This document shows, piece by piece, positions 15,785 to 63,173 of a stretch of DNA of 64,000 nt. Under the pieces are notes generated by a model. That model was not told where the DNA came from. It was given only the letters and a program-made list of their open reading frames with translations, and ran no database searches. Where the stretch lies: NCBI GenBank assembly GCA_951406725.2, contig OX597816.1, positions 148,924,001-148,988,000 of the forward strand, in the 5' to 3' direction. A program made the translations under genes and the position numbers. Each line of letters opens with the position of its first letter. The stretch's first letter is position 1. This DNA comes from Octopus vulgaris. Taxonomy: Eukaryota.

Positions 15785-15861
15785 TACCTCAAAACACTGC
15801 TCTAGCACTTCATAAAAATGAAACTCTGATAATGATAAAGAACTTTTTACGTAGTCTGTAC

Positions 15862-16070
15862 CTGCATTCAATAAACCATTGCCGTATCTGATCTTGCATT
15901 CTTTCTTTCATGTCAGAACCTTCAACATCTTGAATTCTTTCTTTAACACTAACCAATGCCTGCCGATATTCCTCTTCATGCACTTCCTGTATAGCTCGAC
16001 GTTTCTCCATGGTATTCAATGCAGATGCTACAGCAGTGTTACCTGGGATGTTTGGCAACGGTGGAGGAGT
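15862..16070 (-). CDS. IQCA1: IQCA1/DRC11 exon 7 (TPPPLP...QDQIRQWFIECR)
   Basis: Conserved DQIRQWFIEC motif; taag|...AG|gtacag; phase 0 to 2. Confidence 0.92.
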
Positions 16071-16700
16071 CTTAAATATGGTACAAAAGAGATGAAATTC
16101 AGTGAATTTAAAGATACCATATAGAAGACTACCATACAAATAAAAAAACAGAATTAGTAAATCAGTTCTAGTTGTTTTTGTGTATCTTTAGACTGACTTT
16201 TATGATCTACAAGAATAGTACTACCTCCAGGTTCCATAGCATTAAGCAAGTGAGAAACAGATTTACTGCTACATAGTATGTCAATCTATTCATAAGTAAC
16301 TTTTGTCACAGGAAGATGTAACCTTAGTGCTACATGGCGATGAATCACTCATCAATTCCAGTACAACTACTGTTTGTACTAATCTGTAAGAAATAACAGC
16401 CAAATCTTGCTCAAATCTCATCCTGTCAGCTCAAAAAAGGAAAGACATATTGGACACTGAAGTCCTAAATATACAAAATTATGGGAAGGTCACAGTGAGA
16501 ATACATTTGATCACAGAACTGCTCAGCTGGGCTTAACCTGGGGATAAATAACAACAATCACCTAATTAGGGTAAGCTAAGTAGACTTTATGGTTTACTCA
16601 AAAGAAAACGGACAGTGCCCATGATTTTTTGGTTGGCCTCGAATATTGGCTGGGGGAGGAAGGAAGGAACTTAAACTCAAGGGATAAGCATAGATGTCTC

Positions 16701-22200: not shown

Positions 22201-22542
22201 TATATTATCAAAAGTATGGAAATTAATGTTATATAAAGTTGTTGACTTGAATTTGATGTTTGTTCTCTAATCAATGTTTTTTATCTCTATCTCAATTTCA
22301 TTTGAGCACTTCTTTTTTTTAGTCATATAAACCCTTTTGTCTCTATAAAAAGAGGCAAAAATTATTTCTTGTCATATATATGTATATATATACATATATA
22401 TGCACACACACACATACTTGCACATAGACAGACACACACACACACACACAAATACTTGCGTTTCCAGAATACACGTGCATATGCACCTAAATGCAACACA
22501 TACATATATAAAGAAATGCATTAACCAGAAAAAAAATGTCAC

Positions 22543-22731
22543 CTTTTGTATCAATAGCGCAGCTAAAAGTCGGCTCATTGCTGGTACTCCTCTAATTTCA
22601 GCCCTTTTCTCTCGTTCTTCTTGTAGCCTTATTTCTTTCATGAACTTTGCTCTTAGTCTCCCTTGTCTTGCTCTTTCATTCATCTGGATGATATGCACAG
22701 CCTCTTCAAAGGTCAACTGAATCATGTCTTT
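22543..22731 (-). CDS. IQCA1: IQCA1/DRC11 exon 5 (EEAVHIIQMNERARQGRLRAKFMKEIR...AALLIQK)
   Basis: IQCA1 signature ERARQGRLRA and first half of the IQ motif; acag|...|gtgac; 63 codons. Confidence 0.95.
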
Positions 22732-22863
22732 CTGTTTTGAAAGACAACAAAAAAAAACATCACCAACAATATCAGTAATTTATCATTGTTAATATATACT
22801 ACCTATGCTCTATTGAAAGCAATCAGTTCTAAAGAATGGGACAAAAAAATCTTTGATAAAGAT

Positions 22864-29367: not shown

Positions 29368-29863
29368 GATAAAACTCTAGTTGTGTGAGTGTCTGTCCCC
29401 TTCGATTTAGATTCCTAACTCCTCCCACATTTTGCGGTGCAGTTTAACCAAATTCGGGTATCTTATAGTCGTGATTCATATCGAGCCCGTCTGACTATTA
29501 GCGCGCGTCAACGATGAGTCTACGATTTTAAAAATAATTTAACATCATTTTTTATTCCATTTTAATGCATAAAATGCATCGTGTGTCGATGGCGGTGGAG
29601 TTGGCGTCCACGCTCACAGCTGCACCTGTTTGCTTCTCCCCTTCCCTCCCTCGTGAAGCTGTGGGGAAGGGAGTGTAAAGAAATCAACGTCGTAATGCGT
29701 TGTGAAGGAGACCAGCGTTCTTTTAGAACAACGACTTCATGGCTTGAAGACACCAAAACAGAAATGGCTAAGAAAGCCCGAATTTATAAGGGAAGTAACT
29801 CTCTAAAAATGCTTATATAGTTATTTCCCTTACAAACCCGAGCAACGCCGGGCGATACTGCTA

Positions 29864-29864
<1 letters not shown>
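29368..29864 (+). mobile_element. Non-autonomous Helitron
   Basis: 3' hairpin cccgagcaacgccggg 8 nt before a CTAG|T terminus; the 5' boundary is approximate. Confidence 0.8.
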
Positions 29865-40367: not shown

Positions 40368-41333
40368 TCAAGTAAGTTCATCTGTTAAATCTATAGAGAT
40401 ATCATTAACTTGTGGTGATAATGACACATTATTTCCTCTGGATGTAGGACCAAAAGAACAGGCACTTTTTCTACTGATTACAGATTGACTGAAAGGTTTA
40501 TAAAAATTTCTTCCAATGAGACTGGGCTGAGAACACATTTTTTTAACAATACAAGATACAGGAGATAAATCATTGGCCAGAGAGCTTTCAGATGTATTGG
40601 ATTTCATATTAGATTTTTGTACATTTGATGTTGCTCTACTATCTGTGGTGTCTGAAAATGGCACAGCAAATACTTTACTGGGTACAGCTGAAGAATCTGA
40701 TGGCGATATATGGGATATCCGAGAGGTGCTTAAATTTCTTTTGGATAGATGTGATATATTATGATTTTGTTGACTATATATACTGTTTACAGGTTCCAGG
40801 GATTTAGTTTGTGCACTGGGGACAACAACTAAACTAGTAGAAGAGTTTCTGTTTTTACCTACATCTAATGAACTGACTTCAGACTTCCTTTCAATGGCAA
40901 TGTTTGTATTTTCTTTATGTTGTGTTAATTCAACTACAGAAATGTCATCTTTTATATTAATAATATCTTTAGTGTTAGTTGAAAGAGGTTTGGATGATGA
41001 TGGCTGAATTGGTGTTATAGTAATGTTTGATGATACAGATGCTTTAACTGGTATTTGGTGATATTGTGGATGATGTAATGTGGTTGCAAGTTGACTGTTA
41101 CACAAATACTCAAATTCGCTCATATCTAATTGTTTTGCAATAATTTTTAACTGTTGTAAAATATCTGGATCAAGATCAAGAATCCCGTTGTATGCATATT
41201 CTGCAAAAGCAGTTAAAGCTTCTTTGCTAACTTCCTGTGGTAAGTTAATTTGGAGAAACTTGTGAGAAAGCATATCTGCACCAAACACTGACAGCAGTTT
41301 AGGACACACAGCAGCTAGGACAACTTTATGCAT
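40368..41333 (-). CDS. BTB gene 2, last exon: C-half of BTB plus Ser-rich tail ending ISIDLTDELT
   Basis: tttcag|MHKVVLAAVCP...FAEYAYNGILDL...IAKQLDMSEFEYLC; 322 codons; the tail aligns by eye with gene 1 (PFSDTTxSxAT, DLSPVS). Confidence 0.9.
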   Translation of the reverse strand: MHKVVLAAVCPKLLSVFGADMLSHKFLQINLPQEVSKEALTAFAEYAYNGILDLDPDILQQLKIIAKQLDMSEFEYLCNSQLATTLHHPQYHQIPVKASVSSNITITPIQPSSSKPLSTNTKDIINIKDDISVVELTQHKENTNIAIERKSEVSSLDVGKNRNSSTSLVVVPSAQTKSLEPVNSIYSQQNHNISHLSKRNLSTSRISHISPSDSSAVPSKVFAVPFSDTTDSRATSNVQKSNMKSNTSESSLANDLSPVSCIVKKMCSQPSLIGRNFYKPFSQSVISRKSACSFGPTSRGNNVSLSPQVNDISIDLTDELT

Positions 41334-42293
41334 CTGAAAAATAAGCAAGAGAAAAAGAGAAACAGTAAAAAGAAAATTATAATATAATCTCAGTTTATGA
41401 GAAACTGCAACAATGAAAAGCATGAGGACTACATATACTATATTTTCAAGCATATAAGTTGAATCTTTCAGAGCAAAATTTGTAACTAAAAAAGGCACAT
41501 CAACTAACACACCAAGACAACACTGAAGAACCAAAATTTCCATGTGAAATGCAGCAAGTTTTAAAATGTTGAGCAATCATCAGCCATTTATAGAGGTTTT
41601 CCATCAATACATATACTTATTTCCATCTCTATAAATGGCTGATGATTGCTCATCATTTTAAAGCTGATTTAATACTTACAATGTTTAATAAAATGATGTA
41701 GCGTGAAACGATCGTACCAAATTACTGAAGATATTCTTGTTGCTTACTTTGATTATATATATAAATTATTAAAATTATAATTTAGGGTATCTACAAGATA
41801 CTGCCATGCTGAAAATAGCAGCCAGGAACTGACTCTAAGACCACTTTAAGTGTTCATATAGCACAGGGAGAGAAGACAAAAAGACAAAATAAAACTAGAA
41901 AAAATTACTGGATAATTCCAGATCTCGGACCTCTGGCTTTGCATTTAGAAATGCTTTACCTCATCAGTGGAATATATGCAGAGAGAAACACAAATACATA
42001 TATATATGTATATATATAAATACAACATACGAATACTTACATATATGAACATATACATACATACATATGCACATATGCATCAAGACCAGTTTAAAATGCC
42101 CACTTCTTAATTCCATGTGCAATATGGTTAAAATATCACCACAGTAAATACAATGACAAAATAAATTTAAATTTATATAAATAAGGATAAGATCGTTAAT
42201 TTAAATTAAAAAACAATCTTATCAAGTGGCCAGCATGGAAATAAAAATCTTCAAATGTAATAAGTATAAAAAAACCACATTATTTATGGGATG

Positions 42294-42343
<50 letters not shown>

Positions 42344-42745
42344 CTTTCAGTTTCCATCTTCCAAATCTACTCACAAGGCTTTGATTGGACCAAGGCTATA
42401 GCAGAAGACATTTAACCAAAGTGCCACAAATTTGGACTGAACCCAGAACCATGTATTTACAAAGCAAAGTTCTTAACATAGAGCCAAGCCTGCACATATG
42501 TTTGGAAATGAATTGTAGGGATGTATAACTTCATGGTAATCTTAGTGCTAAGATTAGAGAATTTTGAAATAGAATTCCCATTTATTTCAAAGTCAACTAA
42601 GAGAAATTAACAAAATAATGTTCCTTACCTTAAAACACAACACACAGGCGCTACAACATAGTTTGAATTTGTGGTCAGTAGCTCAGTAACATAAACTCAT
42701 TATTTGGTAAAAGTTATTGTGCAATAAGTCTTCAATTAAACTTAC

Positions 42746-43058
42746 CATCACTGTAGATGTACCATTTCCAATACCAGCATCACATAATTTTCCACTCTTC
42801 CATAGCAATGCCAGACTGGACATTACATTTTTCTGATGATCAGCAAGAATAAATATTTTCTTTTCGTGAGGTTGTGGCATTTCAAAGGTCTTTGGTTGCA
42901 TAACAGACGTCAGAACTGGAGGCATTGAGAAGTGAACCGACTGTGGTACAGTACCAACATCCTTAATCACACAAATAGGCTTCTCAGCAGCAATTTGAGA
43001 AGTAATTTCCTGACAATTTCCAGCCATTTTAGAAACGTGGCTATCACCACTCATTTCC
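42746..43058 (-). CDS. BTB gene 2, exon with N-half of BTB (DHQKNVMSSLALLWKSGKLCDAGIGNGTSTVM)
   Basis: tttcag|G GAA...ATG|gtaagt; same phases as the BTB gene 1 exon. Confidence 0.88.
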
Positions 43059-44352
43059 CTGAAATTTATTGAAATAAGAGCTATATAAATGATATTTCAT
43101 AAAAAGACCTTGAAATGAGAGAAATACGTTTAGAGAAGCGTTTTCTTTGTGGACAATAAAGGAGTAAAAATTAGGATACTCTTTGAATTTCACTTTCATC
43201 ATCATTTAATGTCTGCTTTCCATGATGGCATGGGTTGAACTTTTTGACTGGAGCTGATAAGGCCAGTGGGCATACCAGGCTCTTGTCTGTTCTGGCATAG
43301 TTTCTACAGCTGAATGCCCTTCCTAATGCCAAGTGTTCCACAGAGTGTACCAAGTACTTTTTATGAAGCAGCACCAGCACGAGTGCTTTTAACAAGGCTC
43401 TGAAGATAGCCCTTAAATATTTGAATAATTTCAAACAAATTGATATATCAAATATTTTTATACATAGAATTCACAAAAATGGCTATACAAGGGTAGATTC
43501 ATGTTGTTTAACCTCTAACCTACAAAATATTATTTTTATGACCATATTCAGATTATTATTTGTTGTATAACATTGAGTTGTTGTTTAACTCTAGGTCTAC
43601 CCTAATTGAGAAGGCCTGTGATCAAAGATGTTCTACTCGTGACTAACCATTCTTTTTTTTTTCTAAACACCATGTACTTAAAGCCATATTATCCAATGTA
43701 TCCTTCCTTGTTTAGGACTGTGGTGTGATTTGAGAGAGATTTAGCAGAGAGTATTGATGTTCAATGGCCAAATGTTCCTTCTCAATAACAATGTAAGTGA
43801 GGAAGATGTTTTAAAATGTCCTAGAAACCAACAATGGAACATCTGCAGTCATTCCACTTGTTCGAAATAACAGCCATATTGTCCTACAAAATAGCAAAAT
43901 AAGTCCTTTTTCTAGACATATTACATGTTTGTTACTCATTAGATTGTTCTGGTGAAGCTGCAAACCACTAAAATGCTACATGAAATAACTAAACCAATAC
44001 TCTATACCTGGTGGTACATACTTTATCACATGTAATTATAAATGCTAAAGCTAACTTAGTCAGAATCTAAGCCACAGAACTGATGGCTCTAAACTAGTCT
44101 AATTCAGGCAGCTTTAGTAGTTCAACTTAATTACCTAATCAGAAAAAAACATACAAAAACAAAATTATAAACACAAACTGCAATAATACAATGACAGGTG
44201 ATGCCATGCGTGAAGACTCAAGTACTATAAACTACACAATGGCAAATAAATCATAAGCTAAATAGTTAATATGGAGTGAAATAACAATGCATTCTAGGCA
44301 AGAGGACACCCTGAGAAACCTGTGGATGCTAAAAATAAATCTGTAGCGTTAC

Positions 44353-46396: not shown

Positions 46397-46680
46397 GTGG
46401 ATATACCTGCCACATACAACAGATTTCTCATAGTTTCCAAAGTGCAACACAGTAGAACTGAATTCAAAATCATGTGGTGGGAAAAGCAGCTGAAGCTCAA
46501 CAGTTTTTTCAAATTCTAAATGTATACTGTTATTCTATGTACTAGATATTTAACTAGCAAATCCACCTCACCCACATTCAAAGCTTTCATCTCTTAAATT
46601 TCCATATACCAAGAGAAACCTAACTGCAAACATACCCACATAGTCACAGTACAAAGTAAGTTAATAACAGAAGGACATAC

Positions 46681-46969
46681 CATCACTGCGTGCGAACTGT
46701 TGCCAGTACCAGAATTACATGATTTTCCATTCTTCCATACTGAAACCTGATTGGACATTTTATGGACACCAAGAATAAATTCTTTGCAGGGGAGTTGAGG
46801 TTTTTCAACAGGTGCAGGCTGAGAAATTGGATTCTGAACTGAAGATACTGAGAACTGAACTGTTTGAGCTATATTTTCTGCTTTCTCCATTTTAGGTTTA
46901 GAACCTGGGACTGAAGTTTGAGAAGGAAATTGTTGTGGCTTCTCAACAATATCTCTACCATCAGACTGC
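46681..46969 (-). CDS. BTB gene 2 exon ending in a degenerate copy of the BTB N-half (KEFILGVH...WKNGKSCNSGTGNSSHAVM)
   Basis: tttcag|G CAG...ATG|gtatgt; clear paralog of exon 42746-43058. Confidence 0.72.
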
Positions 46970-47062
46970 CTGAAATACATTGAAGTATAAAATTACAAAA
47001 GAACATAATTATTCAAATTGAAAAAAAAAATACAATGAAAAGCCATGACAAAAATAATTTAC

Positions 47063-47244
47063 CCATCATTGAAATCATTGTTTTTGTGTTTCTTTATCAA
47101 ATGATCTTCTATAGGTTTTGTTCGATCATCAGTAACAGGAGGCAACAGATGTGAGTCACTTGAAGTAGGCACTGTGACAGATATGGGTTGTTTTCTTTTT
47201 CTAGTAACTCTATATTTTGAATTATGTTGATTCAATGCTGCAAT
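47063..47244 (-). CDS. BTB gene 2 linker exon (IAALNQHNSKYRVTRKRKQP...), with an NLS-like RKRK
   Basis: ttgcag|...GG|gtaaat; phase 0 to 2; open frame. Confidence 0.7.
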
Positions 47245-47424
47245 CTGCAACATGAATGGGAAAAAAATCAATAGAATAGCATTAAAGGAAAGATATGTAA
47301 TTGCTTTTGTGTAGGCATAGGTCAATTTCATAAGGAATTGATTGAGGCAACTAACTGGATTAGAACTCTGAAAATAAATAACAATGAATACATGAGACTA
47401 TGAATGTGTGGTGGGGGAGGGGGG

Positions 47425-52705: not shown

Positions 52706-55257
52706 TATATACTCTCAGGCCTTCAAGCAGGCTAGCCACATGCTAGAAATAAGAGCCAAATCTCACAAAACTGCGATAACATAATGTAATCAACCTATTC
52801 ACCTTTCTGCAAAGATTTTCAGAGTAATTTCCTGCAGTAATATGACGAAGTAAGTCATGTGAAATGAAAGTGGCTTTAAAAAAAAAAAAATTTTTTAACT
52901 TTCTTTTTTAAACTTTAATTTTTTTTTTTTTTTTTGCGAAATACGTAGAAAAATATGAAGATTACGATTCTGAAAAATATTTGTAAAATTTCAAGTTTTC
53001 AACAAGAAAAAAAAAGAATATATAGCCTCAGGCCTTCAAGCAGGCTATCCACATGCTAGAAATAACAGCCAAATCTCACAATACTGCGATAAAATAATGA
53101 CATTTTGAAAATGTGATTTTTGAAATATCTTTTTTTCAGAATCGGATCCTCTATAACCAAAAACGTGGGATTCCGTAAAAAAAAAAAATCAATATATATA
53201 TATCCATTTTAACCGAATTTATGACGGAAAAATTGGATCTTGTGAATTTTCCGAAAATTTTGAAAACGTATTTCTAGCATGTCAGGTTTTCTGATTAGAT
53301 ACTTTTTGCGTCTACTATTTTATAATTCTATGCATACGTGAAAGATTAGTAGAGATTAACACTTGAATTTCACTTCTTGTCATAGAGCGGATTTTTTTTT
53401 CTTTTTGAAAAATTGAATTTTACACATTTTTTTTTCCAGAATCATAATCTCCGTATTTTTCTGCTTATTTCGCCAAAAAAAGTTTTTTTAAGAGAAAATT
53501 TAAGAAATTAGGGGAGGGGTGGAATTAAAATTTTGAAATGCTAGGTTTTTTTTTTGTAGATTCGGAATCTATGCACTCGATATAGTGGGTTCCTGTCAAA
53601 AAAAAATCCATTGTCTTTACCTCCGCCGGAAAGAAGTATGCAACACACATTAGACAGACAGATAGATATATCTTATTGCTTAGTCAGAAGACAGGGCAAT
53701 GCTCAAGCATCTGAGTCTAGTTGATGGGAGGGAAGACAGAATGTATAATAATAATTCTTTCTACTAAAAGTACAAGGCCTGAAATTTCTGAAGGAAAAAT
53801 GCTAGTCGATTACATCGACCCCGTGCTTGACAGGTACATATCTTATCGACCCCGAAAGGGTGAGCGGCAAAGCCAACCTCGACGGAATAAGCTTATTTGT
53901 ATAGTGCTCAGAGGCACTGCAAATGTAAGGCCAAGTCTTACATTTGCGCAACAGAGTAGAATATCTTTATTATGATCATGGTGATCTTACATAAAATGAG
54001 ACAATACAGGACAAACAAAAGACAAAGATGTTACATGAGTTCGCATTGTGTAAATATTAAAAATTAACTTAAATAATATGTATTTTATATATCGTTTGAA
54101 AAAATTAGAACTTTGATTTAAACTGAAACTAAGTCATAGAAACACACGAACAAAACGTTATGGGTCGCACCCGGCAGCCTGTAAGGCCCAGCAACGAACT
54201 TTTCCTTTCCTCAATGATTAAGCTGGGTTACTAACACCCACCTTTCTCATCACATCCTTCCATCGTTTCTCGAATCTCGGTGGCAGGGTCCTCCTCTCCA
54301 GCCCCATCTTTATATTGACCGAAAATAGTTAGTTGGTGTGCGTATTGTTTACCTTCGCCAACTGTTCAACCAGTCCGCCACCCTAAATAAGCTGTACAGT
54401 ATTCCAGGGTACATGTCTCCATTAGACGAGTTTAAGATGTACCTTGTGAGGTCCATGTAAGCCTGGTTACTATGTAAATGTGTATGTTAATTAGTGTCAA
54501 AAGATTTCCATCGGTCTCACAATTCTATCTACTAGACCTAAATCCTTGGATCGACCCGAGTTGTGGAACACCTGCTCCAAATGAACATGCAGATCGAAGT
54601 GGAATGAAGCTCGTTTTGAAAGTTGTTATAAGACCAATTTCATAAACTATTCGATCATAAATGCAACCAAGAAATCCTACACATTAATAAACACGAAAAT
54701 GAAATTTTTTCAAAAGCAAATGCAGAACGAATGAAACCGCATTTGTGTGTTCCAGATGTTCTTTCTTACACTACACCGAGCCGCATATGTTTGCTCAGAA
54801 ACAAATACTTGCTTCACTAAGTTCCCGCTGTACTAAGAAGCTTATCGTTCGTGTATCCGTATATGATTTATAATTCGTCCAACGTCAGTCAAGAAGCGAT
54901 ATAACGAAAGAGAATAACAGGAACATGAAGTCGAATATTATTAATGAGGAAACAGGATAGAGTGACGTTGCAACTAATTAACAGAGCATAAGTGACAAAA
55001 CTTATATGAAGACAATAAATGAATAACAATGTAGACAATAATAACCATTTCTTATGTAAACAAAGCGATTCTTTTTTAAAATTCAGCAGAATCAATATTA
55101 ATATATTAGGGTTACATTTTATTTCGAAGTTGTCCGAAGACTAAAAAGTAGTCAAATTTAGCGCGATTTGAATAAGTACATAAAATTATGAAACTAAATA
55201 TTCCAAGGATTAGTTTAGCACTCTACTTCAATCACAACAAAACCAACATATACTCAC

Positions 55258-55728
55258 ATCTTCAATTTCTTCTTTCGACAATTTACATCGTCGAATTTTG
55301 GAGCGCGAAAATCCCACCAACGGTTTGTGATTGTGTTGTAAGTTGGATCTGGTTATCCTTAGTAATCCTTTAGCACTGGATAGCGAGAGGAAAGACTTAC
55401 ATCCGACCGGCTTGCAATGCATCTTAAGTCGCTTTGTGTTTGAATTACCTTTCGGTTCTCCATGTTGAGTACACACAAACGTCACGGAGACGTATCGGAG
55501 TGCCCGAGATCGAGTTTTGTCTCGGTACTTGTTATGGTCATTAGCATTACACGATGATTTAATACGGTATATGTATCCAGTTCTGTTCATGAACTGGTGC
55601 AATAGCTTCGAGAAGGAGTCAAAGGAGTCAAAAGCGGTCTGAATGAAAACATCTCCGAATATTTTTGACACATCAATCAACATTTCGCATATAAGTTTGG
55701 AGTTTACTTTCTCCTCATGCGCGCGCAT
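55258..55728 (-). CDS. BTB gene 2, putative first coding exon: FAR1/WRKY-GCM1-type (ZSWIM3/9-like, MULE-derived) zinc DNA-binding domain
   Basis: F.SF..F..L....TG..Y, then VCTQHG...GCKSFL...LRIT..NLQHNH and LSKEE; intact 157 codons ending in a strong GAT|gtgagt donor (phase 0). The link to the downstream exons is inferred from phase. Confidence 0.75.
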
Positions 55729-56134
55729 CAAAGCATATGCGTTCGATATTTCGATGGTTTCGTTGGAAATCGTTGAGCACGTGGGTTGTCACATGGTATC
55801 CCACACAAATAAATAGTGATCTTTCAAGTGAACATTACTTTCAATACACTGCATTTCCAATAATTCAATTACAACTGTGCTCTTTCATATTTACATTAAA
55901 CACAAGGCACTGTACAGATCATGTCCCATTTATTTAGTTTCATTATCGAATATTTTCTTCTTTTAAATATAAAGATGTTTGCTTTTTATCGGAAGATGCT
56001 GGCTACTTTAACAAAAGTAATAACTTAAAGCAAAATCATGCACTAATCAATGAAAAAGACTCTTCGTGGTTATTTGACCTATTAGAAATGCTACCGTGAA
56101 AAAAGGAATATAACTCTGTATAATGTAGTTCTAA

Positions 56135-58527: not shown

Positions 58528-59577
58528 TCAAGTAAAACCATCTGTTTTATATAAACCTGTATTTTTGACATTGGTAACTTGTGTTGATGATAATGGTAAT
58601 CTGTCCCCTTCTGCTGTAAAAAGTCCTACAGGATAGACATCATCATTGCTACCATAATTCACACTGTTGTCAATTGACTGAGTTGCTACAGTGCGAGTTA
58701 ACGGTTTAGAAGAGTCTTCTCTTATGAGTCTAGATTCAGAACACAATTTTTCTTCACTATATGACACAGGAGATAAGTCAGAAACTGGAGAACTTTCAAA
58801 TACATTAGATTTTAATTTGGGTGATGTTCCATATATCTTATTTGCTGTTGCTTTGCTATTTGTGGTATCTGAAAACGGTAAGCTAAAATCTGTAGTGGAT
58901 ACAGCTATAGAATTCAAAGGAGTGTTTAGTGCCTGAGAATTATCTGAAACTGAACCAGATGTGTAAGCTCTTTTATTCATTTCACCATATTCGTCATCAT
59001 CAGGTCCTACAGGCTCGATTTTTACAGTGGGAAGAATAAGAGAACCAACTGGAGGGTTGCCACCGTTAGTGTCCAGGGATGAAGCCTGAGACTCTTGCTT
59101 AAAGGTTCTAAGTGTATCTTCTTTAAGTTCTGCTAATTCATTTTGAGAAATCTCCTGCTTAATATCCTCTGTATGGACAGCTGAAACAAATTTGGTTGAT
59201 ATTGGAGTAGGAAATGAAGAAGATGTCTGAATCATTGCATCTGTTTTGCTTATTGTATTGGACACAAAAGATGGCATCTGCCTGGTATCATCAAACGCAG
59301 TGACTGTTGAAGCAAGTTGCTGACGTGCTCCACTTTGAAGATGAGCATCACACAGATTTTGTAAATCTTTCATGTCTAATCGTTTTGCAATGACTTTTAG
59401 CTGTTGTAAAATATTAAGATCAAGATCTAATAGTCCAGTATATATGTATTCAACAAAAGCCATTAAAGTTTCTGTGCTTACTTCAGGAAATTTTACTTCA
59501 AAAACCTCAGAAGAGATGTGTGTACTAAATATTGAGAACAGTTTTGGAGACACAGCAGACAAGACTATTTTATGGAC
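58528..59577 (-). CDS. BTB gene 1, last exon: C-half of BTB plus Ser/Thr-rich tail
   Basis: ttcag|VHKIVLSAVSP...FVEYIYTGLLDL...IAKRLDMKDLQNLC; 350 codons to TGA; AATAAA (minus) at about 58460. Confidence 0.9.
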   Translation of the reverse strand, partial: VHKIVLSAVSPKLFSIFSTHISSEVFEVKFPEVSTETLMAFVEYIYTGLLDLDLNILQQLKVIAKRLDMKDLQNLCDAHLQSGARQQLASTVTAFDDTRQMPSFVSNTISKTDAMIQTSSSFPTPISTKFVSAVHTEDIKQEISQNELAELKEDTLRTFKQESQASSLDTNGGNPPVGSLILPTVKIEPVGPDDDEYGEMNKRAYTSGSVSDNSQALNTPLNSIAVSTTDFSLPFSDTTNSKATANKIYGTSPKLKSNVFESSPVSDLSPVSYSEEKLCSESRLIREDSSKPLTRTVATQSIDNSVNYGSNDDVYPVGLFTAEGDRLPLSSTQVTNVKNTGLYKTDGFT

Positions 59578-60142
59578 CTGAAATATAATAAATGATAATA
59601 GTATGTTTATAGCTTGCCAACAATAGAATGACAGACACTTAAGAAATATGTTAATAAAGTAGAAAAATGTAGGCTTATGTTTTTCTGACTTTTTCAAAAG
59701 CTAATGACTCCTAAAAATCTCAAGCCACTGGAAGTCAATTTAAACGTCATTTATTTGGAAGGGTTATTTCATTAATACCTTAATAAAATGAACTTGATTT
59801 TCTTTTTCTGTAAAATATTCTATTCTATATTAGTAAACAAATGTTTCGGTAAAAGTTATTTTCAAAGACTGAGTCATAAAATTTTCAGATAATAATAAAA
59901 CCTAAAAAGTAATAAGTTCTATAACTTCTGATAACGGCACAAAAGATTTTTAATTATAAAGCAACAGATTTATCTAAGAATTGCACCAGTAAGAACATAC
60001 AAATCAACTACACCTACATTTCAGAAATATAGTGGGGAGTAGAAAGAATAGTTTGATATTAAGCCCATTAGAAATTAAGCATAATTTTTTAGACTTAAAA
60101 GTAACATTTTTTAGTTATCATGATGATGACATTAGAAACAGT

Positions 60143-60904
60143 GGATCTTTTCCCTTTGAACGGCAGATTTAGAAAATATTTTTTTGCAACTAAACACTTT
60201 CAAACTTCGGTCACTGGTAGAATATGTCATATAAAACATCTTTTACTCTTAGTGTTGTTGAGAAATTTTCTATTTTCAAAGTTATTTTGTGTTCAAGTAG
60301 TCGTATTTCGGTAATTTCAACCAATCAATGACGTATATTCAGCTGAATAAAATTACTGCCATTGCTTGTCAACAACAACTATCGGCAGTGTATATTTCGT
60401 TTGTCACTGTTATTTATGACATCATTCGTGCATTTGTACTGGTTTTAGCTTTAAGGTTTTAGGGTTAGGGTAGGGTTTTAGAGTTAGAATTAGGGTTTGG
60501 GGTTAGGGTTAGGGTTGGAATTTTAGGGTTGGAGTTACAGAAAAAAGTGAAAAATGAAGAAATTGGAGGGGGAGGCGGCAAAAAAGTCTTGTGGTGGTGC
60601 CATGAAGTAAACATGCTTCAGATACACTTGTTTATTCATACAAACGTAACTGAGATGAAATATGTCATAAATAACAGTGACAAACGAAATATACACCACC
60701 GATAGTTGTTGACAAACAACAGCAGTAATTGTTGAAATTACCAAAATACGACAACTTTAACATGAAATAACATTGAAAATACAAACTTTTCTCAACAACA
60801 CTAAAAGATGTTTTATATGACACATTCTACTAGTGTCCAAAGTTTGAAAGTGTTTAGTTACAAAAAATTAAATTCTCGATCTGCTGTTCAAAGGGTAAAG
60901 ATCT
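60143..60904. mobile_element. Foldback/MITE with about 270-bp TIRs, 8-bp TSD and internal TTAGGG-like repeats
   Basis: ggatctttt... pairs with ...gtaaagatct; gaaacagt is duplicated at 60135-60142 and 60905-60912. Confidence 0.9.
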
Positions 60905-60947
60905 GAAACAGTTTATAATGTGAAAAAGTTTACAACTGTATACTTAC

Positions 60948-61293
60948 CATCACAGTAGATGAGCCATTGCTAATACTGGCATCACATAATTTTCTACTTC
61001 TCCACATAGATGCTAGGTTAGATATGACACAATGTTGATGACTAGTAACTAGCAATTTTCGTTTCAGTAAATCTTTTTTCCTAATTATTGATTTAGATAC
61101 AGTTGTTTGATTTGGATCTTTCACCAGCTTTGATTTGGATGGAGTTATTTGAAATGGTGAAGTCAACACCTGAGCTGGCTTTGTAATATTTTGCGATGCT
61201 TGTGCTAAACTTGAATCTTGCTGGACTGGCATTTTAGTAGTTAGATGTACACATTTTGAAGTCTTTGGAGATGATAAAGCACTGTCCATTTGC
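60948..61293 (-). CDS. BTB gene 1, exon with linker and N-half of BTB (SHQHCVISNLASMWRSRKLCDASISNGSSTVM)
   Basis: tttag|G CAA...ATG|gtaagt; BTB N-terminal H...L..W....LCD pattern. Confidence 0.88.
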
Positions 61294-62509
61294 CTAAAAT
61301 GAAAATTTGCAATTAATTCAGAAGAAATATATATAAGAGAAAAACAACAACTCAACAGCATTGTCAAAATACCATTTTAGTCATCACATACCATATGTCA
61401 TGTGATTGTTGATTTCTTAACTTTTGATTCTGCATGTGTTGCTTCCCAAGGTGCTGTGTTTTATTCTTTTTTTTCTGTATCATTTTCATCTGAGTGTTGA
61501 GGAAGTGAGGCACGATCAAAGAAAGAAATAAAAAGATAAAAGACTAATGAATTCATTTAAATGGAAATAATTGAGACTGTGATGAATTGATAAGTTATTT
61601 TAATGAAAATGTCAATGATAACTAAAAATTCTTGTTTGTAAGGCTGACAAATAATGCTTAATTTCCACATTGAAACTTCCACTGAGGAAAAATGGAATCT
61701 GTCAGCCAAATCCTCAAAAGCATTCAAAATCATCCTGAACAGAGAATCATCATCATCATCATCATTTAACATCCGCTTTCCATGCTAGCATGGGTTGAAC
61801 GAATCTCTACAGAATTCCCAAACTTGAATGAGAATGGAGCTGCATGTTATACATATCCTATTCTGAAATCTGACATGATGGTAGATTGTTATAATTTGAC
61901 TTCAACATCAAATATATAGTAACTGCTGCCACAATTCACACAGACGTTCTCTGGTAGATTTTTTGCAGAAAATTTTTCAACATTGTAATTCCTGATTGAA
62001 CTTACAATTTACAATTGATCTGACAGCAGCTTCATTAAATTTGTATTTTTATCATATACATTGATTCCAAAGTTATACTCAATTTATAATGGATAGTGAT
62101 CCCTCAACACTGTATAGTGTACATGATACTGTATTACAGGTGTGTATTTCTGTGTTGATGATAATATTAGATAATGAAATACTGAGCATGCTAAGTTACT
62201 TGGCTTGCCCACTGATGTTTATCAATTGCACATCTCCTAACCCTGACATGGAGATTCAAGGAAGGATACAAAGTATGACTGAGTCTTAATTCACGATTTT
62301 GTTTTCTTAATCAAAATTGTGGACAGGCTGCAGTACTAAAAGTTGACATCACAAGAGACTTCATATCATAAACCTTCTTAATACATTTATCCTACATATA
62401 TCCTTGGTCTCTATAATTAATTGCAATATCAATGATCTCACAAATAAATTCTATAAGCTGATCTTTGTTATATTTCTCCTATTGGTGTGTGATGCTTAAA
62501 AATGTATAC

Positions 62510-62901
62510 CTGATATCTACCTTGAGACTTGTACGATAAGTATTTGTCCTCTGTTTCTGAGCTTCCAATCTTGCCTGCCTTTGTTCTGGTGTTTCTGCCC
62601 GCCGTCTAGCAAGCTCTCTTTGCCTATGATTTCGTAATCTTAATTGCCTTTCTTCTGCAGTTTCATTTTTCCGTCTTTCCTTTACCCTCATAGCATTCCT
62701 ATAAGCATTTGTCTTCTGTTTCCGATCTTCTAATCTTGCTTGTCTTTGTTCTGGTGTTTCTGCCCGCCGTCTAGCAATCTGACTTTGCCTATGATTTCGT
62801 AATCTTAACTGCCTTTCTTCTGTAGTTTCATTTTTCCGTCTTTCCTTTGCCTTCATAGCACTCCTGGTGAGACGACCCAGTGCTGATACTTTGGGAGGCA
62901 T
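62510..62901 (-). CDS. BTB gene 1, exon with four STPR-type 23-aa repeats (ETxEERxxRL...)
   Basis: Open 392-nt frame from ATG 62901 with the repeats ETTEERQLRLRNHRQSQIARRRA and ETPEQRQARLEDRKQKTNAYRNA. The AG|gtatac donor is phase 2, matching the next exon. Confidence 0.75.
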
Positions 62902-63173
62902 AACTTCATAACACTAGAAAACAAGACGTCCTATTATCAGAGAACATTGACACATTTTCTAGATATCTAAAACTAAAATTAGTACAATATCTTTTAAACA
63001 TGTTACAAGCAACAAATTATACCAATAATCCTTTCCCAATTATGTCTACAGAAAACTAGTATTTATATGAAGATTCCAACTGAAATCTTAGTGTATGGTC
63101 TTCACATTGCACAATATTGCTCTTTATAAACGGAGTGTAAGGGATTAGCTCCCCTTGAAAACTATTGTAAATT

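Follow-up and report, generated by a model that had tools for sequence, protein, structure and literature searches.

A BTB gene of Octopus vulgaris with a likely Helitron-derived STPR-type head

Does a host BTB protein of octopus begin with the front end of a rolling-circle transposase? The question arose from a stretch of Octopus vulgaris DNA of 64,000 nucleotides (assembly GCA_951406725.2, contig OX597816.1, forward-strand positions 148,924,001 to 148,988,000; hereafter the window), in which a preliminary description had proposed that a basic leader and a set of STPR-type repeats, possibly a domesticated Helitron N-terminus, are spliced to a BTB exon. Our best explanation, which we hold to be probable though by no means assured, is that this head was captured from a Helitron transposase, is predicted to bind DNA, and sits on a BTB protein acting as a likely transcription or chromatin factor.

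Gene structure and splicing

The STPR-BTB gene lies on the minus strand, and translation of its joined exons gives a product of 624 aa. Its exons, in order of transcription, are as follows.

G000:C3:148988044-148988300, just beyond the window: 5' UTR exon, spliced to the head exon in single contigs of runs X3 and X9
62521..62913, minus strand: head exon, with 12 nt of UTR, the ATG at 62901, a 24-aa basic leader and four STPR-type motifs
61392..61489, minus strand: 98-nt exon encoding aa 128-160, with joints 62521 to 61489 and 61392 to 61293
60948..61293, minus strand: linker exon encoding aa 161-275 (low-complexity linker, then the BTB domain's initial 20 aa), with joints in four of four runs
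58528..59577, minus strand: last exon, with the remaining BTB domain (to about 59332), a Ser/Thr-rich tail and the stop at 58530-58528

The start codon at 62901 and the leader MPPKVSALGRLTRSAMKAKERRKN were borne out. The head exon comprises 127 codons with a net charge of +24 and ends in a phase-0 donor after 62521; over 62583-62773 it was matched by RNA-like contigs with no mismatches in all four runs. The joint from 62521 to 61489 was recovered in three of the four runs at 90% likeness, and at 97% in both of these that were re-examined (X3 and X9); it was not among the joints listed for the RNA-like run X14, which scarcely covers the head exon, nor among those for the DNA-like run X17. The joints 61392 to 61293 and 60948 to 59577 were present in four of four runs, and splicing of the gene was found in runs from three studies. 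The RNA nature of these runs is a guess ('RNA?'), none being on record as RNA; they are probably RNA, because intron-skipping joints present there are not listed for X17. The 97% contigs are specific to the STPR-BTB gene, because within the first 60 nt of the 98-nt exon its paralogs show 6-8 differences.

The gene had initially been modelled with a phase-2 donor at 62510 joined directly to 61293. The arithmetic of that model is correct (392+346+1050 = 1788 nt, open for 595 codons), but the joint was absent among those listed, in which donor 62521 joins 61489 instead; it may occur as a minor in-frame skip of the 98-nt exon. Use of the phase-0 donor at 62521 had been thought fatal to the fusion. 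The contig joints do use that donor, but the 98-nt exon converts phase 0 to phase 2 and the frame is preserved, so that the fused protein holds, with a length of 624 aa and not of about 595. A joint from 62510 to 61489, seen in one of the four runs and only at the 90% level, runs into a stop at codon 132 and may derive from a paralog, the donor contexts being nearly identical, and one from 62521 to 61432 (one run, non-GT/AG ends) was traced to paralogs. Loose ends at 61431 and 61492 were likewise of paralog origin and gave no support for alternative upstream heads on the same body. Three further loci (L002-L004) were considered as alternative exons of the gene and rejected, each having its own BTB exons; open reading frames at window-scale positions 127172 and 148607, considered as heads, are decayed Helitron insertions. 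Among the joints listed from the runs, only one in-frame head was demonstrated for this gene.

The last exon alone was recognized as BTB by Pfam (43.9 bits), and in the 624-aa ortholog a full-length BTB domain occupies aa 256-357, matching PF00651 over model positions 4-108 of 110 at 56.4 bits; we infer BTB-mediated dimerisation from family membership. Pfam found no zinc finger, C2H2, kelch or MATH domain in the protein. Confidence is low (pLDDT <50) over most of aa 366-624, with the Ser/Thr-rich tail predicted to be disordered, and a fold search with the single-sequence model (mean pLDDT 51) returned only weak BTB rows and no match at E<=0.001. The database labels 'Ken-like' and 'ZBTB11' fit poorly, as the BTB domain is internal and C2H2 fingers are absent, and our finding corrects them.

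The head and Helitron transposases

The four motifs of the ET.E.R..RL type start at aa 25, 48, 80 and 103 and are spaced 23/32/23. They had been described as four exact 23-aa repeats; a strict 23-residue tandem period is absent, and what we found is two 55-aa units (44/55 aa identical; 90.9% over 165 nt), each with a 23-spaced pair.

62701..62865, minus strand: 165-nt unit, copy 1, with motifs beginning at 62829 and 62760
62536..62700, minus strand: 165-nt unit, copy 2, with motifs beginning at 62664 and 62595

Pfam STPR (PF21107) scored 29.8 bits on the head exon and 21.2 bits in the 624-aa protein, with a cut-off of 27, and phmmer matched the head to the STPR domain of FMBP-1 (5D23) at E 0.0057. 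Glu1, Thr2, Arg6, Arg9 and Leu10 are kept in all four repeats. The base-contact residues of FMBP-1 (Met13, Ser14, Tyr16, Ala17 and Leu21) are not retained; these positions hold H/R/Q, R/K, S/K/R, Q/T/E and R, and R14, R16 and R21 are the commonest letters there in Helitron repeats. In the predicted structure the helices of the head are broken at each ET, as in FMBP-1 (PMC4856987), and one long helix spans aa 105-165, the residues from the 98-nt exon being predicted to lengthen this last helix of the head.

The repeats alone do not tell Helitron from host STPR proteins: on repeat sequence, host-type proteins nearly equal Helitrons (best BLASTP 52.8 vs 60.1 bits), and the PSSM margins between the two are only 1.4-8.5. 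The leader was assessed against 120 Helitron proteins picked by their Rep region alone, which makes the test non-circular. An E[TS]..[EQD]...R motif precedes the Zn knuckle in 65 of these 120 proteins and a basic leader stands at the start of 50. A profile of those 50 leaders scored the first 30 aa of the STPR-BTB protein at 33 bits, a value that 0 of 1000 shuffles reached in each of three shuffle schemes; on 13 other BTB N-termini the profile scored 9.1 or less. The basic leader begins at Met1, and its register to the first STPR motif is that of Helitron transposases, to which the head aligned Met-to-Met by BLASTP (38-44% over about 70 aa), and 22 of the 84 non-octopus matches to a profile of the head continue into the Helitron Zn region. 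The other STPR proteins tested (n=8) matched the leader profile only from model position 11 onward. One host-type protein scored 23.0 over positions 11-31 only, vs 24.5 for the full-length octopus ortholog; host-type scores are single-domain, whole-protein scores having been dropped since they sum over repeats.

Within the gene, tblastn gave no match to Rep (HUH) or PIF1 helicase, in agreement with the earlier statement that neither follows the head, and a Zn-knuckle match was absent from the 624-aa ortholog. The head exon had no dispersed genomic copies, only array paralogs matching it (7 candidates scored), and no Helitron DNA or element-end motif was found near it. The Helitron-like character of the N-terminus is supported by the leader profile, the Met-to-Met alignments and a young Helitron-BTB fusion in a sibling gene, described below; the head likely comes from the first ~70 codons of a Helitron transposase. 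That the head is domesticated we infer only: Helitron DNA is lacking beside the exon, and purifying selection among paralogs is weak.

The BTB array and alternative explanations

Twelve BTB paralogs, the STPR-BTB gene among them, form a tandem array that lies downstream of a multi-head BTB cassette gene and includes six young paralogs. Its next member is older.

40368..43096, minus strand: older BTB paralog with the same two-exon BTB layout (tblastn about 54%, open reading frames, tree)

The cassette gene has constant exons at G000:C3:149171.5-149173.6 kb, common to 10 of 10 isoforms tested, and heads of kinds typical of transposases (THAP, CENP-B/Tc5, FLYWCH and DUF3504). Helitron remnants are common in the array, and a Helitron copy lies at 29370-29864 of the window. 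In one sibling, with its BTB exon at G000:C3:149104579, 1.8 kb of a non-autonomous Helitron is fused in frame inside the BTB exon. This head is 85-87% identical over its 1.8 kb to dispersed genomic copies, and its frame is open where all four dispersed copies are broken. Four of nine related loci run on into Helitron coding sequence, at least one terminates just beyond the fusion point in a hairpin of Helitron type, and the sibling's head is also present in an O. sinensis RefSeq model. Because this sibling carries 1.8 kb of Helitron in frame, we conclude that Helitron-to-BTB capture has occurred in this array.

The O. sinensis protein XP_029634340.1 ('Ken-like') is identical to the STPR-BTB protein at 618/624 residues, and at 127/127 in the head. 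Head orthologs of O. vulgaris and O. bimaculoides, species that split 13.3-33.5 Mya (PMC13282606), pair across species at 72, 89 and 89% identity. In O. bimaculoides, where the head is a single unit, the model bearing it has only 189 aa and no BTB, and the models of that species carrying this head are truncated or shortened. Some database models suggest that heads may be spliced to neighboring bodies. The BTB bodies of the paralogs are 85-94% alike, and in six of six paralog pairs divergence of the head exon exceeds that of the following intron; heads remain orthologous to those of O. bimaculoides and bodies look homogenised. A protein search for the head among longer proteins gave six matches, all Octopus, and the head profile gave 88, with BTB in 0 of 86 scanned besides two named Octopus BTB-type proteins; these searches left out the genomes of squid, cuttlefish and Argonauta.

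The capture may have proceeded as follows. A Helitron would have inserted in or ahead of an ancestral gene of the array; splicing or deletion would have brought the element's start codon and the 5' part encoding STPR into frame with the BTB exons, and the remainder of the element would have decayed. Tandem duplication of the fused unit may then have produced the six young paralogs, still before O. bimaculoides split off, and the STPR-BTB gene would later have doubled its 55-aa unit, from two motifs to four. By analogy with FMBP-1, each motif would form an amphipathic helix in the major groove over ~4 bp, held by Arg6, Arg9 and Leu10, and a BTB dimer would offer two such arms to AT-rich DNA. 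The BTB domain would pair the protein with itself and with near-identical neighbors; because heads diverge while bodies stay alike, mixed paralog dimers with differing DNA preferences would be expected. Helitron-derived repeats are a plausible, putative DNA target.

We also weighed other origins and roles for the head. It could have been shuffled from an older host STPR gene of the FMBP-1/ZNF821/CG14440 type and still serve a DNA-binding BTB factor. Host STPR proteins are widespread in animals and FMBP-1 likewise has a basic stretch ahead of its repeats (PMC4856987); the near-equal repeat matches and the head exon's lack of flanking transposon DNA suit this origin too, and HELIANO regards STPR as acquired by Helitrons through capture (PMC11417382). 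We give it a small probability, as the non-repeat leader matches Helitrons from Met1 and the eight other STPR proteins only from position 11 on, the sibling shows capture of Helitron DNA onto the same BTB exon, and the upstream cassette gene employs transposase-typical heads. BTB domains bind Cullin-3, and a Helitron-derived head might do no more than provide a basic helix for nuclear targeting or for binding protein or RNA, in a protein that is a scaffold or Cullin-3 adaptor and not a sequence-preferring DNA binder. The charge of +24, the long helix and the missing FMBP-1 base contacts are consistent with such a role, and for a transposase HTH that nematode F-box proteins have captured, binding to proteins rather than to DNA has been proposed (PMC12062965). 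Every repeat nevertheless keeps the phosphate contacts (Arg6, Arg9 and Leu10) and the helix caps (Glu1/Thr2), the other heads carried by this BTB family belong to known DNA-binding folds, and neither kelch nor MATH was found, which leaves this role slightly behind a host origin in our ranking.

Alternatively, the young paralogs might have arisen through tandem duplication and transposon insertion with largely neutral effect, being still transcribed and open yet redundant. Among paralogs dN/dS is 0.56-1.0 in nine of ten core pairs and 2.43 in one, and exceeds 1 in the leader, so that values near 1 are frequent and purifying selection appears weak; the old head is lost or broken in two of the six young paralogs, and the shortened O. 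bimaculoides models and the abundance of Helitron remnants point the same way. Against this stand four young-paralog heads whose 72 codons remain open and free of indels although their nucleotide sequences diverge by 12-19%, the two head pairs 89% identical between species, and the splicing seen across three studies, and we rate neutrality the least probable of these explanations.

Returning to capture from a Helitron, a bolder version is that the array repeatedly makes Helitron-headed transcription factors that bind, silence or use Helitron-derived repeats, with STPR as the Helitron's own DNA-recognition arm and FMBP-1-type factors as tamed Helitron parts. We regard this as speculative and unlikely, though less so than the alternatives above; if true, old, intermediate and young captures would stand side by side, in a role akin to that of tetrapod KRAB zinc fingers. 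With small recombinant proteins one could test what the Helitron STPR arm targets, whether the STPR factors of hosts have a Helitron ancestry, and whether new regulators arise in octopuses through the exchange of heads on a homogenised BTB scaffold.

Comparison with known systems

To our knowledge, most transcription factors reported to derive from transposases trace back to cut-and-paste elements. Our search of literature titles found no STPR-BTB or Helitron-BTB fusion, though the supplements of HELIANO (Table S11), PMC12062965 (Table S1) and PMC10027918 could list such; in literature text, STPR and Helitron as whole words, or Helitron and FMBP-1, were not found together, HELIANO having 'STPRs'. 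Octopus THAP and CENPB proteins with BTB have been noted (PMC10027918), in a main text that never mentions Helitrons.

The head resembles silkworm FMBP-1 (PDB 5D23; PMC4856987) and ZNF821 in its basic helical Glu-Thr repeats with Arg6, Arg9 and Leu10, and differs from FMBP-1 in its 23/32/23 spacing, in other base-contact residues, and in placing the repeats N-terminally, between a Helitron-type leader and BTB. Leader and repeats align Met-to-Met with the STPR-bearing N-terminus of Helitron1 (HLE1; PMC11417382) Rep/Hel. Helitrons of the O. vulgaris genome hold STPR, Helitron_like_N and PIF1 within one ORF, and an intact element lies at G000:C2:204186.6-204191.5 kb; unlike Helitron1, the octopus gene lacks Zn knuckle, Rep, helicase and element ends, and has introns, orthologs and a location in a host array. 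It shares its BTB family and head-first layout with the cassette gene (LOC106877732 / LOC115209932), but is a stand-alone duplicate with one demonstrated head. In Drosophila mod(mdg4) and lola the BTB comes first and the C-terminus varies; here that order is reversed, the head preceding BTB. The protein is like ZBTB/Ken in having a BTB domain and a likely nuclear role, and unlike them in its internal BTB and absent C2H2 fingers.

The STPR-BTB gene is an in-frame spliced fusion of a transposase-like domain to host exons, and KRAB-transposase fusions are further examples of host-transposase fusions. As in SETMAR and the nematode HTH-F-box proteins (PMC12062965), a transposase domain would have been joined by splicing to a host interaction domain present in many copies, with amplification following. 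Unlike SETMAR-type fusions, the likely donor is a rolling-circle (HUH) rather than a DDE element and the host partner is a BTB domain. One and the same array also bears captures that differ in age: the old one is common to three Octopus species, and the young one retains 85-87% identity to the transposon family it came from.

Splicing and domains of the STPR-BTB gene

The window spans G000:C3:148924001-148988000 in a 2.8-Gb genome, and genes nearby correspond to Octopus vulgaris proteins at 99-100%. Contigs of four RNA-like sequencing runs from four studies were placed at 90% likeness, and joints were read off for the STPR-BTB gene (minus strand, window 62913-58528). The joints 61392 to 61293 and 60948 to 59577 were found in all four runs and 62521 to 61489 in three of the four; 62510 to 61489 and 62521 to 61432 appeared in one run each. 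The basic leader and the ATG at 62901 were confirmed in the sequence and the exon-length arithmetic of the preliminary description holds; its proposed joint from 62510 to 61293 was absent among the listed joints of the four runs, the donor at 62521 joining 61489 instead. At a stricter 97% likeness, applied to RNA-like runs X3, X9 and X14 and DNA-like run X17 (run types inferred), the 62521 to 61489 joint was still present in X3 and X9, and was absent among the joints listed for X17 and for X14, in which the head exon was hardly covered. These 97% joints were assigned to the STPR-BTB gene because its paralogs differ from it at 6-8 of the small exon's first 60 nt. In X3 and X9, individual contigs connect 62913 to a 5' exon that spans window-scale 64044-64300 (G000:C3 position minus 148924000).

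The path 62901-62521, 61489-61392, 61293-60948, 59577-58528 gives 624 open codons. The O. sinensis model XP_029634340.1 is identical to the predicted 624-aa product at 618/624 residues, and at 127/127 in the head, the exon with the basic leader and STPR motifs. We are almost certain that this is a spliced fusion gene. An out-of-frame ATG at window 62909 (minus strand), 8 nt upstream of the start codon and likewise present before three paralogous heads, could dampen translation.

What had been described as four exact 23-aa repeats proved to be a single 165-nt unit duplicated once (44/55 aa identical, 90.9% at the nucleotide level), with four ET.E.R..RL motifs starting at residues 25, 48, 80 and 103. 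Pfam STPR scores 29.8 bits on the head exon, and the last exon matches Pfam BTB at 43.9 bits; STPR in the full-length protein reaches 21.2 bits against a cut-off of 27, which may be why databases list BTB alone. When the O. sinensis ortholog was modeled from its single sequence, the helices broke at each ET, with pLDDT ~90 over aa 21-150 and low confidence elsewhere.

Origin of the head

In this genome, Helitron proteins start with MPPKK and combine STPR, Helitron_like_N and PIF1 in a single frame. In the accessible text of the HELIANO report (PMC11417382), STPRs as a domain are nearly confined to Helitron1 elements and are interpreted as captured. To keep the leader test non-circular, 120 Helitron proteins were chosen by their Rep region alone; an STPR-like motif lay ahead of the Zn knuckle in 65 of the 120, and in 17 under a stricter pattern. 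Those opening in a basic leader numbered 50 and made up the leader profile; the remaining 70 were excluded. It scored 33 bits on the first 30 residues of the STPR-BTB protein, 20-32 on three paralog heads and at most 9.1 on 13 other BTB N-termini. No shuffle reached 33 bits (0/1000, three schemes), the top shuffle scoring 29.3 with aa 5-24 alone shuffled. When 2567 Met-started 30-mers (~730 kb) were ranked by this profile, the top six, which include one decayed Helitron, came from the minus strand of the BTB array. The Helitron-like N-terminus proposed earlier is borne out by BLASTP, which aligns residues 1-70 with residues 1-70 of Helitrons at 38-44%.

Descent from host-type STPR proteins has to be weighed against this. 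The repeats alone score 52.8 bits with host-type STPR proteins versus 60.1 with Helitrons, a repeat PSSM favors Helitrons by just 1.4-8.5 bits, and one unnamed host-type protein nearly matches the STPR-BTB protein on the leader profile, over the profile's last 21 positions. A search for Helitron DNA at the locus found none left. Among 84 non-octopus matches to a head profile, 22 extend into the Zn region of Helitrons; the bulk of the rest are short fragments that cannot be classed. We favor with good confidence a Helitron origin of the head.

Elsewhere in the window, a non-autonomous Helitron at ~29370-29864 (plus strand) has a 3' hairpin and CTAG end that resemble the ends of STPR-bearing autonomous Helitrons at 38/42 nt.

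The BTB array and a captured head in a sibling gene

Twelve BTB genes, the STPR-BTB gene among them, lie on one strand over ~210 kb, with five more 2.1 Mb away. Six young members (the STPR-BTB gene itself counted, at 100%) have BTB cores 86-90% identical to it and form one clade (support 100/100) together with seven proteins of other species, three from O. bimaculoides and four from O. sinensis. In four of the six, at window-scale 62901, 74552, 93080 and 121960, the head of this lineage is intact; of the remaining two, one has a broken head remnant at ~143.7 kb and the other no head. Farthest upstream lies a cassette BTB gene, its constant exons common to 10/10 database isoforms tested and its starting heads CENP-B/Tc5, FLYWCH, THAP, DUF3504 or unnamed.

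The STPR-BTB head is 72% alike to that of O. bimaculoides P0045 (support 98/94) and two other heads are each 89% alike to O. bimaculoides heads; inside the O. vulgaris genome, paralogous heads are 56-71% alike. BTB bodies, the downstream exons, are 85-94% alike in any pair, within or between species. Divergence in the head exon's last 144 nt (12.5-18.8%) exceeds that in the intron's first 144 nt (5.6-12.6%) in 6/6 pairs. This head/body contrast would be expected if bodies undergo gene conversion, if heads are under diversifying selection, or if both apply. Among paralogs, most dN/dS values fall between 0.5 and 1, with values above 1 in the leader, the counts being small; purifying selection therefore looks weak. 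The P0045 model, which ends before BTB, carries one 55-aa unit, and the doubling is therefore placed, probably, in the vulgaris/sinensis line.

One array member, the sibling (BTB exon at window-scale 180579), begins at 185932 with MPPKKRVRIGRR and contains this feature:

G000:C3:149109.6-149111.4 kb (L118:1819-3613), minus strand: in-frame fusion of a young non-autonomous Helitron within a BTB exon

About 1.8 kb of the sibling, 105 codons included, is 85-87% identical to dispersed copies, and Helitron coding sequence follows in 4/9 related loci. A deletion derivative, L119, has a stop one codon past the fusion point and then a Helitron-type hairpin; the sibling has neither this stop nor this 3' end, its frame running on through BTB exon sequence that shares 93-96% identity with its paralog. 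The fusion frame is open in the sibling and broken in 4/4 dispersed copies. The same head occurs in one O. sinensis model; the nearest gene in O. bimaculoides lacks it in 4/4 isoforms. Pairwise JC distances of 0.14-0.17 translate, very roughly, into 20-23 My at 0.0036 per My, near the 25-My Helitron burst reported, with that rate, in the accessible text of PMC13282606.

Several other features were noted around these genes. The two paralogs whose old STPR head is lost have annotated leader-only heads, P0033 and P0009 (G000:C3:149034271 and 149074323, minus strand), followed closely by decayed Helitrons on the same strand; head replacement may be under way, which is no more than a lead. Database models P0001, P0040 and P0033/P0034 pair one head with different bodies or combine two heads, which may point to heads being spliced onto distal bodies or to paralogs being mis-mapped. 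The next paralog (G000:C3:148998.3-148999.0 kb, minus strand) has additional N-terminal ~19-aa charged repeats ahead of its STPR head, an array kept in O. bimaculoides (P0002, P0011). A minus-strand ORF at window 55228-55788, with a ZSWIM3_N match of 41.2 bits (above cut-off), a weak FAR1 match and a likely GT donor at its end, could serve as a Mutator-type head of the BTB gene at 43096-40368. Two short ORFs between two BTB genes (window 46594-47397, minus strand), one like the first BTB exon, are possibly another decayed paralog. Downstream of the array, exon-like ORFs of a separate gene (window 15810-16187 and 22372-22779, minus strand) carry what we take to be an IQ-like motif. The second cluster of five BTB genes (G000:C3:151.27-151.38 Mb, plus strand, L069-L082) includes three with STPR exons upstream and a different basic leader, a type found too at window-scale 204993 and 266161.

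Proposed action and comparison with known systems

We reason that the product would be a dimeric, probably repressive DNA-binding factor that could mix with its paralogs via near-identical BTB domains. DNA binding itself seems reasonably probable; that Helitron repeats are its main targets is doubtful. According to the accessible text of PMC4856987, each FMBP-1 repeat consists of a linker of two residues and a helix that spans 4 bp of the major groove, phosphates are contacted by Arg6, Arg9, Leu10, Tyr16 and Arg20, and binding prefers AT-rich DNA, through shape. All four repeats of the STPR-BTB head keep Glu1, Thr2, Arg6, Arg9 and Leu10. Unlike FMBP-1, the four repeats do not keep its set of base-contact residues and include a 32-residue step, because of which the DNA register would differ from that of FMBP-1.

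Accessible texts already describe Helitrons with STPR (PMC11417382), BTB-containing THAP and CENPB proteins of octopus (PMC10027918) and multicopy host domains capturing transposase domains (PMC12062965). A literature search covering main texts and few subscription papers found no STPR-BTB protein and no host factor with a captured Helitron head. We regard the STPR-BTB gene as a probable host-transposase fusion.
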